A stretch of 64,000 nt of DNA from Shimia sp. (GTDB lineage Bacteria; Pseudomonadota; Alphaproteobacteria; Rhodobacterales; Rhodobacteraceae), in NCBI GenBank assembly GCA_024224295.1, contig JAAENN010000177.1:79-64078 (forward strand), in the 5' to 3' direction. The translations under genes were made by a program, and so were the position numbers. The notes beneath the pieces are model-generated. The model did not search any database, had not been told where the DNA came from, and worked only from the letters and a program-made list of their open reading frames with translations. Below, in pieces: positions 25,852-32,731 of this stretch (position 1 is its first letter; each line of letters opens with the position of its first letter).

Positions 25852-27186
25852 ATGGCCGAGAACACCACTGCTGAGAAAAAGAAGCTCTTCATCAAAACCT
25901 ACGGGTGTCAGATGAACGTTTATGACAGTGAACGCATGGCTGAGGCTATGGGTGGTGCGGGCTATGAGACCACGGACACGCCGGATGATGCAGACATGAT
26001 CCTGCTCAACACTTGCCACATTCGCGAAAAGGCCGCCGAGAAGGTTTATTCGGAGTTGGGGCGGTTCAAGGGGCTGAAGGCGGAGAAGCCGGACCTGAAG
26101 ATTGGCGTTGCGGGCTGTGTGGCGCAGGCTGAAGGCAAAGAGATCATGCGTCGCCAGCCGTTGGTCGATTTGGTTGTAGGACCGCAGGCCTATCACCGCC
26201 TGCCGGAGATGGAAGCCAAGACGCAGGAAGGCGTAAAGGCGCTGGACACGGATTTTCCTGAAGAAGACAAGTTTGAGAAGCTTAAGGGCCGCTCCAAAGC
26301 AAAGCGCCAGCCAGCGGCGTTTTTGACTGTGCAAGAGGGTTGTGACAAGTTTTGCGCCTTCTGCGTGGTGCCGTATACCCGGGGTGCTGAGGTGTCCCGC
26401 CCGGTGGATCGCGTGGTTACAGAGGCGCGTGATTTGGTGGAACGCGGTGTGCGCGAGATCACCCTATTGGGGCAGAATGTGAACGCCTACCACGGGGCAC
26501 ACGGCGGCGGCGATATGACTTTGGCCGGGTTGATCTGGGAGCTGGATAAGATCCACGGTCTGGAGCGTATTCGTTTCACCACTAGCCACCCGAACGACAT
26601 GATGGATGACCTGATTGAGGCGCATGGTACCTGTTCCAAGCTCATGCCCTATCTCCATCTGCCGGTGCAGTCAGGTTCCAATAAAATCCTGAAGCGCATG
26701 AACCGCAGCCATGATCGTGACAGTTACATCAAGTTGATTGAGCGTATTCGTGCGGCTCGGCCGGACCTGCTGTTGTCCGGCGACTTCATTGTTGGTTTTC
26801 CAGAAGAGACCGAAGCCGACTTTCAGGACACAATGGATTTGATCCGTGAAGTGAAATACGGGCAAGCCTATAGCTTCAAATACTCTACTCGTCCGGGGAC
26901 CCCAGCTGCGGAGCGTCCGCTGGTGGATGCCGCTGAAGCAGATGACCGTTTGCAGCGACTTCAGGCCCTGCTTGGTCAGCAGCAGAAAGAGATCCAGAAC
27001 GGTATGGTTGGTAAAGAAGTAAACGTTCTTTACGAAAAAGCCGGCCGTCTAGAGGGGCAAATGGTTGGAAAGTCCGACTATCTGCACGCGGTCTATGTGG
27101 CTGATCCTAAGGGGCAAATCGGTGACATCAAACGGGTGAGAATCGTGGAAAGCGCGGCGAACTCTCTCGGTGGTGTTTTGATCTGA
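25852..27186 (+). CDS. miaB: tRNA-2-methylthio-N6-dimethylallyladenosine synthase
   Basis: TYGCQMN, NTCHIRE, radical [12 protein letters not shown]-terminal TRAM domain. Confidence 0.96.
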
Positions 27187-27424
27187 GATTGACCTTGTGT
27201 CGGAAACAATCTTGGTTAATCTGAGAATATTGATGCGCGCGTTCTGCTTTGAGTAGGGCGTGCGTGACACATTTTGGACATATTTTAGGGCGCTGGCCAC
27301 GCGAATTAATGATTTCTTCTTCACATGAGTGGCAACTCGGTGCATCTTGATGGGATATAGAAAGCTTTGATTTAGAACACTGTTTCAAGAAAATGGCTTT
27401 CGGGGGATAGGAGAGGTACTCGCT

Positions 27425-28000
27425 GTGGCGAACAAAACCAAACAATTGGCGCGGGCGGCGCTTGGAGGTGCGGCGGCTGCCTGTGTTGCGCTTCTGGCCA
27501 TTGCTCAGCCCGCTGCGGCCCAAAACCAACGCACTGTTCTGGGCCAACCTTACGTGCCAACCGTCTGGGTTGATCCGGATGGGTGTGAACACTGGGTGAT
27601 GGATGACGGTGTCGAAGGCTATATGACCCCGCATGTGAACCGTCAGGGTATCCCGGTGTGTCGCCGTGGTAATGTTTGTGGTGTGATGAATTCTGACCAG
27701 TTCTTTGCCACTGACAAATACGGGATCAATTCAGCAAATAAGCAGCGATTGGCGGAGTTTTTCAACAGCTCGACTGCGTCGGCGTTCATTATTGCCGGTC
27801 ACACTGACAGTCGTGCCAGCGATGATTACAATATGCGTCTGAGTTACAACCGCGCCAATGCAGTTGCGAAAGTGGCGCGCGGCACAGGCGCTCGTGTGGT
27901 GGATGTGCGTGGCTATGGTGAGCGTATGCCAAGGGCGACCAATCGCACTTCTGCGGGCATGGCGGAGAACCGCCGTGTCGAAATCATCTGTCTGCGCTGA
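27425..28000 (+). CDS. OmpA-like peptidoglycan-binding domain protein with an N-terminal Cys/His module
   Basis: Signal peptide ending AAA; GHTDSRA, YNMRLSYNRA, GYGE, NRRVE. Confidence 0.88.
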   Translation: MANKTKQLARAALGGAAAACVALLAIAQPAAAQNQRTVLGQPYVPTVWVDPDGCEHWVMDDGVEGYMTPHVNRQGIPVCRRGNVCGVMNSDQFFATDKYGINSANKQRLAEFFNSSTASAFIIAGHTDSRASDDYNMRLSYNRANAVAKVARGTGARVVDVRGYGERMPRATNRTSAGMAENRRVEIICLR

Positions 28001-28012
28001 GGGAGTGGCGAT

Positions 28013-28312
28013 ATGAAACTGACCAAAAGCGTTCTGCTTCTCGGTGTCGCTGTGAGCCTTTCGGCTTGCATCGACAACAAAGTTGACAAGACCGTGGACA
28101 ACTTCACCGATGACGGCCACCTCAGCAATCTGATTGCCGGTATCTGGGTGGACCCTAACGGCTGTGACCATTGGATCATCGATGACGGTGTTGAAGGCTA
28201 CCTGTCTCAGCGTCTGGACCCATATGGCAAGCCAGTCTGTTCCGGTGCGGCCCCTCCCGGCGTGGCCACCGGTCCGTTCAAAGCGGGTGCGGGTATCGGC
28301 GACTGGATCTGA
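28013..28312 (+). CDS. Small lipoprotein sharing the WVDPxGCxHW module with the upstream OmpA protein
   Basis: Lipobox LSAC; GGGAG RBS; WVDPNGCDHWIIDDGVEGY. Confidence 0.85.
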   Translation: MKLTKSVLLLGVAVSLSACIDNKVDKTVDNFTDDGHLSNLIAGIWVDPNGCDHWIIDDGVEGYLSQRLDPYGKPVCSGAAPPGVATGPFKAGAGIGDWI

Positions 28313-28333
28313 TCCGCATCGCTTAAACGTTCC

Positions 28334-28363
28334 AAAGGTCGCCTGGGTATGGCGGCCTTTTTT
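28334..28363 (+). terminator. Intrinsic terminator closing the OmpA/lipoprotein pair
   Basis: aaaGGTCGCC-tgggtat-GGCGGCCttttt. Confidence 0.75.
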
Positions 28364-28478
28364 CTTGGCGAAACCCTGCCATATGTGTCCGCGTCACGGA
28401 AAATTCACGCCCGCCCGCTTGCACCTGCCTGCGTAACTTGGCACCATGGGGCTATACCTTTCTTCACAGGAGATGTGA

Positions 28479-29528
28479 TTGCCCACAGGCACCATGACAC
28501 CACCGCCTTCATCCGATACGCCGAAAAAGACCTCGGTGGAATTTCCGGACAACCGACTGCTGATTGAGCTTTGCGGCGAATATGATCGCAATCTCGCGGA
28601 TATAGAGCAGAAACTGGGTGTGCAGATTCTGCGACGGGGAAACCTGCTCGACATCCATGGCGAAGAGGTAGCCCAGACCGAGGCGGCCGAGGTTCTGGCC
28701 GCGCTCTATACCCGTTTGGAAAGTGGCAAATCCGTTGAGGGTGGCGACATTGATCGCGAGATTCGCATGGGCGCTTCTGAGGAAGACACCGGCGTGCGGG
28801 ACGGCGACCAAATTGAGATGTTCAAAGGCGGCGCGGTTGAAATCAAGACCCGCAAAAAGCTGGTTGAGCCGCGCACCGATGCCCAGAAATCTTATGTGCT
28901 GTCGCTGTTTGACAATGAGCTGGCTTTTGGCATCGGCCCGGCTGGTACGGGGAAGACCTACTTGGCTGTGGCTGTTGGCGTGAGCATGTTCATCTCCGGT
29001 CAGGTGGATCGGATTATCCTATCGCGTCCCGCTGTAGAGGCGGGCGAGAAGCTGGGCTATCTGCCCGGTGACATGAAAGACAAAGTCGACCCCTACATGC
29101 AGCCCTTGTATGATGCGCTGAATGATTTCCTGCCCGCCAAACAGCTGGGTAAGCTGATCGAAGAGAAAAAGATCGAGATTGCGCCGCTGGCCTTCATGCG
29201 CGGGCGTACGCTGTCCAATGCCTTTGTGGTACTGGATGAGGCGCAGAACGCTACCACTATGCAGATGAAGATGTTTTTGACTCGTCTGGGAGAGGGGTCT
29301 CGCATGGTTATCACTGGCGACCGCAGCCAGATTGACCTGCCACGCGGAGTACCTTCTGGGCTGAAGGATGCTGAACGCCTGCTAAGCAAAATTCCGAACA
29401 TCAGTTTCAACTATTTCACCGCCGATGACGTTGTGCGTCATCCGCTGGTGGCGGCGATCATCAAGGCCTATGACGCGGATGCGGTGCGGGCGTTGGCGGA
29501 CAGAGAGAAGAAAGAAAAGAAAGCGTGA
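28479..29528 (+). CDS. phoH: PhoH-family ATPase (PhoH/YbeZ)
   Basis: GPAGTGKT, RPAVEAGE, LAFMRGRT, LDEAQN, VVRHPLV. Confidence 0.93.
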   Translation: MPTGTMTPPPSSDTPKKTSVEFPDNRLLIELCGEYDRNLADIEQKLGVQILRRGNLLDIHGEEVAQTEAAEVLAALYTRLESGKSVEGGDIDREIRMGASEEDTGVRDGDQIEMFKGGAVEIKTRKKLVEPRTDAQKSYVLSLFDNELAFGIGPAGTGKTYLAVAVGVSMFISGQVDRIILSRPAVEAGEKLGYLPGDMKDKVDPYMQPLYDALNDFLPAKQLGKLIEEKKIEIAPLAFMRGRTLSNAFVVLDEAQNATTMQMKMFLTRLGEGSRMVITGDRSQIDLPRGVPSGLKDAERLLSKIPNISFNYFTADDVVRHPLVAAIIKAYDADAVRALADREKKEKKA

Positions 29529-29788
29529 GGCTGAGCGACTTGCCCGATTTGGGAGACCGACCGGGCATAAAAAAGCTTGCGCGACTTGTTAACGCCTATC
29601 AGGAACTTGGTGGTTTTTCCAATTGCGCGGAGGTCGTACGGCTTTCCGAGCGCGCAACGCTTGAGGATCTGCAGATCGAGTTGTTTTTGGACTACCGGGC
29701 GGGCAATCATTTGGGCGACGATAGTGTGGTTGCAGTAAATGAAGAGTTGTATCCACAATTTTTACGGATTTTGTCGCTAGAGAATTGA
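29525..29788 (+). CDS. Hypothetical 87-aa protein between phoH and ybeY
   Basis: GTG start overlaps the phoH stop (GTGA); its TGA directly abuts the ybeY ATG. Confidence 0.6.
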   Translation: MRLSDLPDLGDRPGIKKLARLVNAYQELGGFSNCAEVVRLSERATLEDLQIELFLDYRAGNHLGDDSVVAVNEELYPQFLRILSLEN

Positions 29789-30336: not shown

Positions 30337-31233
30337 ATGGGCGACAGTGCAGACGGATCTTCTAACGCAGCGCCAAGCGCGCAGCCAGAAGGCCAGAGAA
30401 GTAAACCGAAGGGCTGGGTAAGCCGCCTGTTTGGTATGAGTGATACCCCGGAAACCGTGGCGGAGCGCCCGGTGGCCGCAACCACGCCGATGCCGCAGGC
30501 GCATGGTATGATGAACCTGAGACGGATGCGGGTCGAGGATGTGGCGGTGCCCAAAGCCGATATTCAATCGGTGCCCACCGTTATTACAAAAACAGAACTG
30601 GTGCAGCTGTTTCGCGACAGTGGCCTCACCCGACTGCCGGTGTATGAGAACACTTTGGACACACCAGTGGGTTTTGTGCACCTGAAGGATTTTGCTCTGC
30701 GTCATGGGTTCAATGGCGACAATGCCAAAGACTTTGACATCACCAAAGTTCTGCGTCCCTTGCTGTTTGTCCCCCCAAGCATGTCGATCGGTGTTTTGCT
30801 CACCAAAATGCAGGCGGAGCGTCGGCATATGGCGCTGGTTATTGATGAATATGGCGGCGTCGACGGCTTGGTGACCATCGAAGACCTGATTGAGCAGGTC
30901 ATTGGGGAAATCGAAGACGAGCACGACGTTGAAGAGGCTGACCTTTTTATTGAAGAAAAACCTGGGTGCTTTCTCGCACTGGCCAAAACGCCTTTGGAAG
31001 AGTTTGAAGCCGCTGTCGGTCGGTCTTTGAGCCATCACGAAGAGGTCGATCCGGAAGAGATCGACACACTTGGCGGGCTGGTCTTTATGCTCGCAGGACA
31101 TGTCCCCGCGCGTGGCGAGGTCGTTGAGAGCCCCGATGGCGTAGAGTTTGAGGTGGTGGACGCCGATCCGCGCCGGATCAAGCGGCTGCGGGTGTTCCTG
31201 CCAAGCCCATCGGTGGTGGTGCAGGATGGCTGA
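30337..31233 (+). CDS. corC: HlyC/CorC family CBS-domain protein
   Basis: TRLPVY, CBS pair, HMALVIDEYGGVDGLVTIED, C-terminal CorC domain. Confidence 0.88.
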   Translation: MGDSADGSSNAAPSAQPEGQRSKPKGWVSRLFGMSDTPETVAERPVAATTPMPQAHGMMNLRRMRVEDVAVPKADIQSVPTVITKTELVQLFRDSGLTRLPVYENTLDTPVGFVHLKDFALRHGFNGDNAKDFDITKVLRPLLFVPPSMSIGVLLTKMQAERRHMALVIDEYGGVDGLVTIEDLIEQVIGEIEDEHDVEEADLFIEEKPGCFLALAKTPLEEFEAAVGRSLSHHEEVDPEEIDTLGGLVFMLAGHVPARGEVVESPDGVEFEVVDADPRRIKRLRVFLPSPSVVVQDG

Positions 31234-32731
31234 CGGCGCTTTGCGCCGCCGGTTGCAGGTTGTGCCTCTCAAAATGCTGTTGCGCGGTGGCACGCTGGGA
31301 GCGGTGGCCGCGTTGGGGCACCCGCCCTTTGATCTGTGGTTTTTAACGCTCCTTGGCTTTGCCGCAGCATTTTACCAGTTGATGCGCGTGGATGCCGGTC
31401 GGTTGGCTTTTGTCCTGGGGCTGGGCTTTGGCATCGGTTATTTTGTCCTGTCCTTAAACTGGATCGTGGAGCCGTTTTTTGTCGATCCGTGGCGACACGG
31501 ATGGATGGCGCCTTTTGCGATCACGTTTTTGGCGGCGGGTTTGGGGCTGTTTTTTGCGGTGGCCTTTTGGAGTGCGAAACGTCTGAGCGTTGCAGGCGGA
31601 GCGGTGGTTTTGACGCTGACGCTTGCGGAGGTGATCCGGGCCTACCTGTTCACAGGATTTCCCTGGGCCATGCCCTCTTATGTGTTGATAGATCAGGGGG
31701 TTGCCCAAGGCGCAGCGATAGTAGGGCCGCATGGGCTGAATTTGCTGTTCTTTGTCGTGGCCTGGAGTCTCGCATGGGCGGTGTTCAGTGGGGAGCGTCG
31801 GGATGTTTGGAGCGTTGCTGCGCTGGCCATGATCGCCGGGCTTGCCGTGCCCGTGGCGTCGCCAAGCCCGTCGATCTCCGAAGAACGACCGGTTGTGCGA
31901 CTAATCCAGCCAAATGCGCCGCAGCATCAGAAATGGGATCCGCAATACGCTGGCTTGTTCTTTGAGCGGATGGTGAAATTCACCCGTACAGGGGAAGAGC
32001 GGCCGGACCTCATCGTGTGGCCTGAAACAGCGGTACCTGTTTGGCTGCATAACGCGGCGAACACGCTGGGGATCATCTCCGGCGCGGCGGGCGATGTGCC
32101 GGTGGTTTTGGGGATCAACCGCGCCGAAGGGCGGCGGATTTTCAACGCTGCAATCCTGATGGACTCAGAAGGGCAGGTCGCGGAGACCTATGACAAGCAT
32201 CATCTGGTGCCGTTTGGCGAGTACATCCCCTTTGGAGATTGGTTGAGCAAGATCGGGATTCAGGGGTTGGCCAGCCGAGACGGCGGCGGGTTTTCCCGCG
32301 GCGCGGGCGCGGATGTGCTCGATTTGGGTGCATTGGGCAAAGCGTTGGTGCTGATTTGTTATGAGGCGGTGTTTCCGCAGGATGTGCGCGCGGCCCCTGA
32401 ACGGCCTGCATTCATTTTGCATCTCACCAATGACGCCTGGTTTGGCAATTTCTCCGGACCCTATCAACACCTCGTGCAGGCGCAGATGCGCGCGATTGAA
32501 AGTGGCTTGCCAGTATTGCGTGCTGCAAATACCGGCATCAGTGCTGTGATTGATTCACAGGGGCGCGTGCTGGATGCATTGCCGCTTAACACAGAGGGGT
32601 TTTTGGATGTGGCCTTGCCAGAGGCGTCGCCTAAAACCCTTTATGCGAAAGGGGGCGATCTGCCTTTGGTTCTTGTGGTTGTATTGCTGCTGTTAATAGC
32701 GCTTTTACTGCATCGGCGCAAAACGCATTGA
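31226..32731 (+). CDS. lnt: Apolipoprotein N-acyltransferase
   Basis: FTGFPW, IQPN, WPETA, KHHLVPFGE, ICYE, TNDAWFG. Start set to ATG 31226. Confidence 0.95.
   Translation: MADGALRRRLQVVPLKMLLRGGTLGAVAALGHPPFDLWFLTLLGFAAAFYQLMRVDAGRLAFVLGLGFGIGYFVLSLNWIVEPFFVDPWRHGWMAPFAITFLAAGLGLFFAVAFWSAKRLSVAGGAVVLTLTLAEVIRAYLFTGFPWAMPSYVLIDQGVAQGAAIVGPHGLNLLFFVVAWSLAWAVFSGERRDVWSVAALAMIAGLAVPVASPSPSISEERPVVRLIQPNAPQHQKWDPQYAGLFFERMVKFTRTGEERPDLIVWPETAVPVWLHNAANTLGIISGAAGDVPVVLGINRAEGRRIFNAAILMDSEGQVAETYDKHHLVPFGEYIPFGDWLSKIGIQGLASRDGGGFSRGAGADVLDLGALGKALVLICYEAVFPQDVRAAPERPAFILHLTNDAWFGNFSGPYQHLVQAQMRAIESGLPVLRAANTGISAVIDSQGRVLDALPLNTEGFLDVALPEASPKTLYAKGGDLPLVLVVVLLLLIALLLHRRKTH

Follow-up and report, generated by a model that had tools for sequence, protein, structure and literature searches.

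What is achieved by two neighboring genes whose exported products share one small module, in the first case in front of an OmpA-like domain and in the second behind a predicted lipid anchor? The question arises from a 64,000-nucleotide stretch of Shimia sp. DNA (the window). The two genes, designated here ORF1 and ORF2, are flanked by those encoding MiaB on one side and PhoH, YbeY, CorC and Lnt on the other. An earlier note on this DNA had described them as a separate unit whose products pair through the module to form a two-part tether between outer membrane and peptidoglycan. The coordinates it gave for both genes are correct, and the open reading frame listing places them on the forward strand.

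Organization of the locus and its two products

ORF1 (27425..28000) encodes 191 residues from a GTG start codon, 10 nt downstream of the ribosome-binding site GGAGAGG (27408..27414, read from the sequence). Its first 32 residues (27425..27520) have the features of a Sec-type signal peptide, with a cleavage region judged by eye to lie between AAA and QNQ. This end is of the signal-peptidase I type, a lipobox is absent and C20 varies among orthologues. The module follows at residues 47-79 (WVDPDGCEHWVMDDGVEGYMTPHVNRQGIPVC; 27563-27661, delimited by BLASTP against ORF2) and, with the CRRGNVC junction, extends as far as C85 (27563..27679), a residue kept in 147 of 149 orthologues. Residues 93-183 (27701..27973) match the OmpA-like (OmpA_C) peptidoglycan-binding family PF00691 of Pfam over its full profile (1-98/98) with an E-value of 4.2e-11 and 43.5 bits, compared with a gathering threshold of 27.2. 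The GHTDxR and NRRVE motifs are intact and C189 lies just past the domain, so that the proposed succession of signal peptide, module, two more cysteines (C85 and C189) and OmpA domain is accurate. The C-terminal domain also aligns with that of OprF (5u1h), D128 and R183 matching the OprF and Pal residues and both being retained in 144/149 orthologues. In OmpA-like domains, the Asp of GHTD and the Arg of NRRVE make contact with the stem-peptide diaminopimelate. The residues required for peptidoglycan contact are present in ORF1, and wall binding is predicted from its sequence.

The intergenic spacer of 12 nt (28001..28012) bears the ribosome-binding site GGGAG of ORF2 (28013..28312), which encodes a small lipoprotein of 99 residues with a single module (residues 44-76, IWVDPNGCDHWIIDDGVEGYLSQRLDPYGKPVC; 28142..28240, delimited by BLASTP against ORF1). 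A lipobox, LSAC, was read from the sequence at residues 16-19 (28058..28069) and conforms to the pattern [LVI][ASTVI][GAS]C. Lipidation is predicted at C19, which is invariant in 149/149 orthologues, and the mature mass would be about 8.5 kDa. The description of ORF2 as essentially only the module proved too narrow. The 24-residue linker preceding it (NKxDKTVDxxxDxxHLS) and the 23-residue tail past it (SGAAPPGVATGPFKAGAGIGDWI, consensus SGxAPPxxAxGxFKxG...DxI; 28241..28309) are also strongly conserved, the tail including the invariant alignment columns S77, G78, A80, P81, P82, A85, G87, G92 and D97. The Omp10 model (NF041251) scored 24.4 bits on ORF2 against a cut-off of 100, with a match confined to residues 1-50, that is, to the signal peptide and linker. 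The names attached to 2,042 ORF2 relatives are only hypothetical protein or lipoprotein.

An intrinsic terminator (10-bp stem, 7-nt loop and T-run) was located by a terminator scan at 28334..28370, in agreement with the reported 12-nt gap followed by a terminator. The same combination of hairpin and T-run is present downstream of ORF2 in 66 of 77 related loci, as opposed to 1 of the 77 control segments taken from within phoH. The spacer between the genes measures 9-14 nt in 71/80 related loci, and ORF1 precedes ORF2 in all 80 named loci and in all 79 genus-level genomes, 76 of which hold the pair in the miaB-phoH slot. Flanking genes are miaB on one side and phoH-ybeY-corC-lnt on the other in nearly all genomes. 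The claim of an independent unit between miaB and phoH is thus upheld, and the co-occurrence proposed as a check is complete, both genes being always together and adjacent (80/80 named loci).

The module was detected in 98 of the 151 Rhodobacteraceae genera; in 94 of them exactly two copies are found about 600 bp apart on the same strand. Among 401 genomes no match was obtained in any other Alphaproteobacteria family, and only 262 cluster representatives match the module among 1.84 billion proteins. The pair is restricted to Rhodobacteraceae among the Alphaproteobacteria families sampled, its bearers including marine roseobacters, phototrophs and strains of Phaeobacter, Rhodovulum and Roseovarius. 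When ORF1 was compared with its relatives, 1,982 were matched over residues 36-90, and the module region is 82-100% identical in at least 120 of them from many genera. Judging from these alignments, the pair is under very strong purifying selection.

Upstream of ORF1, the miaB-ORF1 spacer contains a promoter-like element (27319..27348, + strand) to which a promoter role may be ascribed: CTTCACA (27319-27325) resembles a -35 box, and a weaker -10-like stretch lies downstream of it. The heptamer was found in 88 of 144 related spacers, and the consensus drawn from 95 loci is CTTCACAa-N5-c-AAAtTTGcTAaacT. The element at 27319 was left uncalled by a generic sigma-70 scan, the upstream spacers were not enriched in CtrA box, ECF, sigma-32 or canonical sigma-70 patterns, and an Rfam search over 27100-28550 returned nothing credible.

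The shared module and its relatives

The two modules align without gaps, as first reported, with 19 of 33 residues identical and 28 similar (BLASTP E-value 6e-16). At the nucleotide level the identity drops to 70%, and a shared codon is used for 9 of those 19 identical positions. These figures speak for an old duplication preserved in the protein sequences and against recent gene conversion. Each paralogue holds its own near-invariant signature across genera, which fits non-interchangeable partners. The cysteine pairs C54/C79 of ORF1 and C51/C76 of ORF2 are present in 149/149 orthologues, and a disulfide probably closes the module, which is confidently predicted to be a three-stranded beta domain of 35-40 residues, an AlphaFold2 model of ORF2 residues 37-84 displaying three beta strands with a pLDDT of 94.4.

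Comparison of the module with Pfam, NCBIfam and the PDB, permissive thresholds included, returned nothing characterized, and the best E-value in a Foldseek search of the model against the PDB was 1.6. The earlier remark that the module has no functional description still applies: curated matches are absent from these three resources and the sole relative is DUF6440 (PF20037), itself an uncharacterized family. The window module scored 13.1 bits against DUF6440 (12.2 bits in the genome search) for a gathering cut-off of 26.5. Matches below this threshold were obtained with 33 of 125 module sequences (best E-value 2.1e-4), while hhalign gave a probability of 82% (81.9%) with an E-value of 1.1e-5 and ORF2 matched phrog_11767 with an E-value of 5.7e-5. 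In BFVD, Foldseek ranked first a phage protein of the DUF6440 family with 38% identity, a TM score of 0.67 and an rmsd of 1.8 A; its probability is 1.00 but its E-value, 0.036, lies above the 0.001 line. By profile and by predicted fold, the module is a distant relative of DUF6440.

The spacing of the two cysteines is the same in DUF6440 and in PHROG 11767, 14094 and 8801, and the pattern common to module and DUF6440 reads DP(x)GC ... G-L/Y-x-S/T-P-R-x-D-x-x-G-x-P-I/V-C. Unlike the pair, DUF6440 proteins consist of a single module behind an N-terminal transmembrane helix, and lack the HW..DDGxEGY hairpin, a paralogous partner and an OmpA fusion. They are encountered in Firmicutes, in other Proteobacteria and in the early regions of many phages, small phage membrane proteins being included.

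Co-variation between the two proteins

Inter-protein co-evolution was surveyed by an unbiased scan of 6,695 ORF1-ORF2 column pairs using APC-corrected mutual information. The top eight scores all join one module to the other, and the best pair (z 11) associates V63 of ORF1 (27611-27613) with V60 of ORF2 (28190-28192). In each protein this is the only position of the DDGxEG hairpin that varies, and the ORF2 model locates it in the turn joining strands 2 and 3. Aromatic residues at ORF1-63 are accompanied by A, I, T or S at ORF2-60. About 10 phylogenetically independent contrasts on supported branches run in the same direction and 0 in the opposite one (p ~0.002, with residue groupings picked after the table had been seen); coding the two positions as majority versus non-majority gives p ~0.008. 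The contrast test yields p-values of 0.25-1 at other variable positions. Gene conversion as the source of this co-variation was rejected: the DNA is 70% identical with identical runs of at most 11 nt, and the co-varying residues are mostly different in the two proteins (W/A, W/I, A/L).

The strongest couplings (63-60, 76-73 and 69-66, ORF1-ORF2) connect equivalent or neighboring module positions, the pattern expected of a pseudo-symmetric contact. From these sequence data we infer a physical ORF1-ORF2 heterodimer. The like-with-like pairing put forward in the earlier note gains real, if indirect, support from the module-module co-evolution. An AlphaFold2 model of a read-through fusion, the two genes being in the same frame and the stop being replaced by Gly, reached a pLDDT of only 48, with both modules below 40, from a paired alignment of 35 genomes, and speaks neither for nor against a dimer.

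A different explanation of the shared module is that it binds a common envelope component, the two proteins not touching each other. Candidate ligands include the glycan strands of peptidoglycan, a sugar of the lipopolysaccharide or capsule and an outer-membrane protein; ORF2 would be a miniature membrane-to-ligand link, and ORF1 would hold two sites, for the ligand and for the peptidoglycan stem peptide. Both hairpins touching one third molecule could also yield co-variation. Conserved aromatic (Trp, Tyr/Phe), acidic (Asp, Glu) and His residues on a very small, presumably disulfide-pinned beta fold suggest a resemblance to carbohydrate-binding modules. Tandem arrays of two to three modules per chain (P0241, P0243, P0244) are more typical of ligand-binding repeats; DUF6440 relatives are single membrane-anchored modules without an obvious partner gene, and ORF1 proteins devoid of OmpA exist. 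We consider this explanation unlikely, though worth keeping in mind, since the top couplings lie at equivalent or neighboring positions, two signature-distinct paralogues that are always together would be needless for parallel binding of one ligand, and neither Foldseek against the PDB nor sequence searches revealed any likeness to known carbohydrate-binding folds. The preferred reading is that the ORF1 and ORF2 modules probably dock on each other, as suggested by their co-variation, and would thereby link membrane to wall.

Comparison with known envelope proteins and proposed mechanism

Pal resembles the pair in uniting a lipid anchor and an OmpA-like domain for non-covalent peptidoglycan binding, with the GHTD...NRRVE motifs conserved. 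In Pal, anchor and wall domain belong to one chain, whereas the pair distributes them over two chains with a module on each, and the chain bearing the OmpA domain has no lipobox. ORF1 scores well below the cut-offs of the Pal models (TIGR02802, 56.6 bits against 125.35; NF008067, 40.8 against 261), and the tol genes (tolQRAB) are not found nearby. The best NCBIfam matches of its C-terminal domain are YiaD (NF053611, 87.4 bits for a cut-off of 175), PA1041 (NF053612, 71.4 for 250) and YfiB (NF053585, 70.2 for 128), all small peptidoglycan-binding envelope proteins and all below cut-off. These are single-chain lipoproteins without the two-cysteine module, and ORF1 differs from this group in having neither a glycine zipper nor a YfiR partner.

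The sub-threshold resemblance to YfiB is also compatible with a sensor or regulator pair of the YfiB-YfiR or RcsF kind, in which the His/Asp/Cys module would sense a metal or the redox state and thereby alter partner or wall binding. The invariance of the module His, Asp, Glu and two Cys fits such a role, and a palindrome conserved in many genera 5' of the promoter-like element suggests regulated expression. Such a role is improbable: the nearly constant surroundings of the pair include no signalling gene for a kinase, a diguanylate cyclase or an anti-sigma factor, relatives freely carry Q, A, R, K, S or T in place of the acidic residue behind the first module Cys, and a structural disulfide is the likelier state of the cysteines in the oxidizing periplasm. 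Neither the metal-binding sensor offered as an alternative in the earlier note nor a redox sensor found specific support.

DalA (RSP_1200) of Rhodobacter sphaeroides, a Rhodobacterales-enriched outer-membrane lipoprotein, associates non-covalently with peptidoglycan and influences both cell division and the integrity of the envelope (PMC10470522). It is a protein of about 18 kDa with homologues reported in Terrabacteria, its gene adjoins that of an L,D-transpeptidase, and an 'OmpA family protein', RSP_1033, was co-precipitated with it (PMC10470522). Identity of ORF2 with DalA was rejected on size and distribution, ORF2 being about half as heavy when mature and confined to one family, and thus set apart by the published description (PMC10470522). 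No functional study was found in the literature on the pair, RSP_1033 or DUF6440, and every database searched labels the pair members 'hypothetical' or 'OmpA family'.

In the mechanism proposed here, ORF1 and ORF2 would be expressed as a translationally coupled operon and ORF1 exported to the periplasm, where its OmpA-like domain would hold peptidoglycan non-covalently. The paralogous modules would dock with their DDGxEG hairpin tips facing each other across a pseudo-twofold axis, so that the lipid anchor of ORF2 and the wall-binding domain of ORF1 are joined from two chains. A conserved Rhodobacteraceae-only operon encoding a two-subunit envelope complex of this kind, a split Pal-like link, is assigned a probability of about one half.

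The membrane concerned is assumed to be the outer one. The residue following the lipidated Cys of ORF2 is V, E, D, A, G, T, L or a gap, and is D or E in about 32 of the 149 orthologues. In E. coli, to which the rule applies, lipoproteins with an Asp there are kept in the inner membrane. ORF2 might likewise stay there, the complex tying the inner membrane to peptidoglycan or positioning enzymes that remodel the wall, a role suggested for DalA, to which it is unrelated, and the transmembrane anchors of the DUF6440 relatives would agree with this. This variant is a long shot: a conserved retention signal would not vary as this position does, the Asp rule is known for E. coli whereas sorting rules are not established in Alphaproteobacteria, and a linker of about 24 residues would be a short bridge between the inner membrane and the wall.

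Under the split Pal-like reading, a membrane-to-wall tethering role is what we infer for the pair, in a form narrower than first suggested. The pair itself, the anchor and the OmpA domain stand, but the outer membrane is an assumption and the OmpA domain has been lost from ORF1 in three lineages that keep the pair (L158, L160, L162). The wall-binding motif is degenerate in a further one (L122), and wall binding is therefore not universal. ORF1 also bears a lipobox in P0355 and L161; because of this and of the OmpA losses, tethering does not suffice as a full account. Divergent lineages still place a small lipoprotein with one module beside a protein of one to three modules, with or without OmpA, and the pairing persists even where the gene order is reversed. 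The source genome encodes, elsewhere, a canonical Pal (135.2 bits) and seven other OmpA-domain proteins, a point against the proposed link.

Most Alphaproteobacteria, to our knowledge, lack Braun's lipoprotein, and the fastening of their outer membrane to the wall is therefore an active question. The pair covers about two thirds of the genera of Rhodobacteraceae, a lineage without that lipoprotein. If the modules dock, a membrane-to-wall link is built from two chains by a new domain, and a first functional handle on DUF6440 and three PHROG families is obtained. More tentatively, and at less than even odds, the DUF6440-type fold may be a periplasmic dimerization handle that was duplicated here into an obligate heterodimer, a two-component membrane-to-peptidoglycan staple. 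If true, this would be the first function for a domain family spread across Firmicutes, Proteobacteria and many phages, and the single membrane-anchored copies of phages might dock onto host envelope proteins. A spanin or lysis-cassette role for these relatives was considered and rejected: the gene of Aeromonas phage 56 and that of Pseudomonas phage PAE2 both belong to the early replication/recombination region and do not adjoin the lysis genes.

The two genes and their products

In the ORF listing, ORF1 (27425-28000) starts with GTG and encodes 191 aa; the co-directional ORF2 (28013-28312) encodes 99 aa. The two genes are separated by 12 nt, each is preceded by a ribosome-binding site, and a terminator-like 10-bp hairpin with a T-run is located 3' of ORF2 (28334-28370), so that the ORFs, the gap and the terminator described in the earlier note were all recovered. 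From sequence pattern and conservation, ORF1 is predicted to carry an N-terminal Sec-type signal peptide (MANKTKQLARAALGGAAAACVALLAIAQPAAA, followed by QNQ). The module VWVDPDGCEHWVMDDGVEGYMTPHVNRQGIPVC (residues 47-79) comes next, then a CRRGNVC junction and a C-terminal OmpA-like domain at residues 93-183, which scores 43.5 bits on PF00691 (cut-off 27.2). On the same basis, ORF2 is predicted to possess a lipobox, LSAC. Its module, IWVDPNGCDHWIIDDGVEGYLSQRLDPYGKPVC (residues 44-76), is joined to the lipobox by a linker of 24 residues and followed by a tail of 23 residues. The gap-free alignment of the two modules noticed earlier was reproduced, with 19 of 33 residues identical (E 6e-16). The corresponding DNA is 70% identical and the same codon is used for 9 of the 19 identical residues; the likeness is therefore kept by protein-level selection and not by recent gene conversion. 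Both genes lie in one reading frame, separated by TGA and 12 nt (27998-28015), an arrangement also found in 36 of 80 related loci. One database entry of 328 aa (P0122) looks like both genes miscalled as one, through a frameshift or fusion.

Conservation was evaluated on 149 distinct orthologue pairs. All module cysteines are invariant, as is C19 of ORF2, the predicted lipidation residue. C85 and C189 of ORF1 are present in 147 and 145 pairs respectively, and D128 and R183 of the OmpA domain are retained in 144. The near-invariant signatures are PDGCEHWVMDDGxEGYMTPHxxRQGIPVCRRGNVC for ORF1 and PNGCDHWIIDDGxEGYLSQRLDxYGKPVCSGxAPP for ORF2. We infer a single disulfide within each module and a second one in ORF1, C85-C189, which would staple the two ends of the OmpA domain together.

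Identity of the pair with Pal was rejected because the score stayed below the Pal model cut-off, a lipobox is absent from ORF1, tol genes are not linked to the pair, and the genome of the window contains a true Pal, along with seven other OmpA-domain genes. DalA of R. sphaeroides, an 18-kDa lipoprotein of wider distribution, was likewise rejected (PMC10470522). RSP_1033, an "OmpA family protein" of R. sphaeroides, was co-precipitated with this divisome lipoprotein (PMC10470522, Table 1).

Distribution and genomic setting

Relatives number 2,042 for ORF2 and 1,982 for the module region of ORF1, all under uninformative names (hypothetical protein, lipoprotein, OmpA family protein). The module occurs only twice in the genome of the window, in ORF1 and ORF2. 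When one genome per genus was surveyed throughout the GTDB family (151 genera), it was found in 98 genera. In 94 of these there are exactly two copies, on a single strand and separated by about 600 bp, and the co-occurrence that the earlier note proposed to check by a module search is thus borne out. No match was obtained outside Rhodobacteraceae among 401 genomes across Alphaproteobacteria, and only 262 proteins emerged from an exhaustive HMMER search that covered 1.84 billion cluster representatives.

In the window, which comes from a Shimia species (Rhodobacteraceae/Roseobacteraceae), the pair is flanked by MiaB upstream and by PhoH, an 87-aa ORF, YbeY, CorC and Lnt downstream. The order miaB, ORF1, ORF2, phoH is kept in 80 of 80 named loci wherever the contig includes the flanks, with an ORF1-ORF2 spacer of 9-14 nt in 71 of them. 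The pair is present in 79 of 79 further genus-level genomes, in the miaB-phoH slot in 76, and a hairpin with a T-run lies 3' of ORF2 in 66 of 77 loci, versus 1 of 77 control stretches. In three of the eight genera devoid of the pair (L182-L189) the miaB-phoH gap measures 97-223 bp; in the others unrelated DNA or genes occupy the slot, among them a divergent TonB-dependent receptor, a porin-like protein of 252 aa and further ORFs. Given this linkage, the terminator and the content of the slot in these genera, the pair is a self-contained cassette that occupies a variable slot, which agrees with its earlier description as a unit of its own between miaB and phoH.

The 87-aa ORF (29525-29788) starts on the phoH stop, ends just before ybeY and has no match in Pfam. 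Lnt, the apolipoprotein N-acyltransferase (LNT_N and CN_hydrolase domains, 31148-32731), is encoded by the last gene of the phoH-ybeY-corC operon. About 3 kb thus separates the ORF2 lipoprotein gene from this lipoprotein-maturation gene downstream of it. As the operon is widely conserved where the pair is missing, the proximity is probably coincidental.

The motif CTTCACA is conserved in the miaB-ORF1 spacer of 88 of 144 loci (27319-27325 in the window) and is followed about 12 nt downstream by AAAtTTGcTAaacT (region 27290-27350; likewise in L017, L054, L058 and about 90 other loci). We take CTTCACA-N12-AAAtTTGcTAaacT to resemble the housekeeping promoters with a short spacer that have been described in Caulobacter. 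Just upstream of CTTCACA, many genera display a palindrome of the CACAATAT/ATATTGTG type; L054 and L058 have perfect copies, and the Shimia spacer has none. Together they look like a candidate promoter with an operator for a dimeric regulator, and suggest that the pair is served by a promoter of its own, which may be regulated.

Kinship and co-evolution of the modules

A confident AlphaFold2 model of the module (pLDDT 94.4, pTM 0.70), for which 125 diverse module sequences were aligned, displays three beta strands and an extended segment ending at the second cysteine; the variable residue x of the DDGxEG hairpin (V63 in ORF1, V60 in ORF2) lies in the turn that connects strands 2 and 3. Neither Foldseek (best E 1.6) nor profile searches matched the module to PDB structures or sequences. 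Three independent lines nevertheless agree on a distant relationship to the uncharacterised Pfam family DUF6440. Below-threshold matches to it occur in 33 of the 125 sequences (best E 2e-4). Alignment of the module profile to a bona fide DUF6440 protein by hhalign gave a probability of 82% (E 1.1e-5), with both cysteines and the DP.GC and G.P.C motifs matched up. Foldseek against predicted viral structures returned a DUF6440 phage protein as best match (TM 0.67, rmsd 1.8 A over 40 columns, 38% identity, probability 1.00, E 0.036) and three further DUF6440 proteins among the top twelve. ORF2 also matched phrog_11767 (E 5.7e-5). The Rhodobacteraceae module represents a specialised offshoot: its HW..DDGxEGY hairpin is lacking in canonical DUF6440 proteins, which carry one module behind an N-terminal transmembrane helix. 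Phage members, all annotated hypothetical, are encoded in early regions of Aeromonas, Pseudomonas, Vibrio, Rhizobium, Ralstonia, Xanthomonas and Microcystis phages, and were not adjacent to lysis genes in the loci inspected. Some canonical examples lie in prophage-like DNA (among L191:1480-1707(-), L192:1369-1689(+), L194:2917-3210 and L195:2992-3216). This kinship adds no function to a module for which the earlier note knew of no functional description.

Co-evolution was measured by APC-corrected (background-corrected) mutual information over 149 distinct genome pairs, using all variable columns (103 of ORF1 by 65 of ORF2, 6,695 column pairs). The eight top scores are all module-to-module. 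The highest by a wide margin couples the equivalent x positions, ORF1 V63 and ORF2 V60 (z 11), followed by 71-66, 70-49, 76-71, 68-66, 76-73, 84-71 and 69-66. The x combinations observed are V/V, A/V, A/L, A/F, W/A, W/I and F/I; tryptophan in ORF1 (41 genomes) is never matched in ORF2 by V, L or F. Pairwise independent contrasts on a MiaB+PhoH+CorC tree estimated with FastTree, with residue groupings chosen after data inspection, associated an aromatic ORF1-63 with A/I/T/S at ORF2-60 in about 10 concordant and 0 opposite changes on supported branches (p about 0.002), and in 16 versus 1.3 on all branches. A grouping-independent coding (majority or non-majority residue) gave p about 0.008, and nine control positions p 0.25-1. 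A pseudo-twofold contact between paralogues predicts that equivalent positions are coupled, as they are here. A third partner common to both proteins could however produce a similar signal. A model with a shared ligand is tentatively retained as a less probable account; direct module-module contact is moderately favored. A read-through fusion of the in-frame genes, modeled by AlphaFold2 with a paired alignment, gave low confidence (pLDDT 48).

Proposed complex and variant architectures

As judged from sequence, the pair most probably forms a heteromeric envelope complex. ORF2 would be the lipid-anchored subunit and ORF1 the wall-binding subunit, joined via their paralogous modules, in a design comparable to Pal or an OmpA-family lipoprotein split over two chains. 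To this reading as a whole we assign a probability of roughly 0.5. The earlier note had proposed such a two-part tether between outer membrane and peptidoglycan, with like-with-like pairing of the modules. That proposal is supported in part: the pairing is backed by co-evolution, whereas outer-membrane sorting, wall binding and the heterodimer itself are features that we infer. A variant placed at the inner membrane is improbable, and we give equally little credence to a function as a sensor pair.

Because the small lipoprotein persists across all readable variant architectures, the invariant of the system is a set of two proteins with the module, of which one is a small lipoprotein; the OmpA domain is usual and not obligatory. 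Among related proteins, two or three tandem modules occur with or without OmpA (P0121, P0241, P0243, P0245, P0246), P0336 combines two OmpA domains with one module, and a lipobox, module(s) and OmpA are united in a single chain in P0244, P0355, P0357 and locus L161. ORF1 has its own lipobox in L161 and L091 and no OmpA domain in L158, L160 and L162; in L122 the binding motif is degenerate (GDRVEI for NRRVEI), with loss of the wall-binding Arg. A one-module small lipoprotein adjoins a larger module protein in all readable neighbourhoods of distant members, and it is still adjacent in L091, L093 and L094, despite a reversed gene order and a different location.
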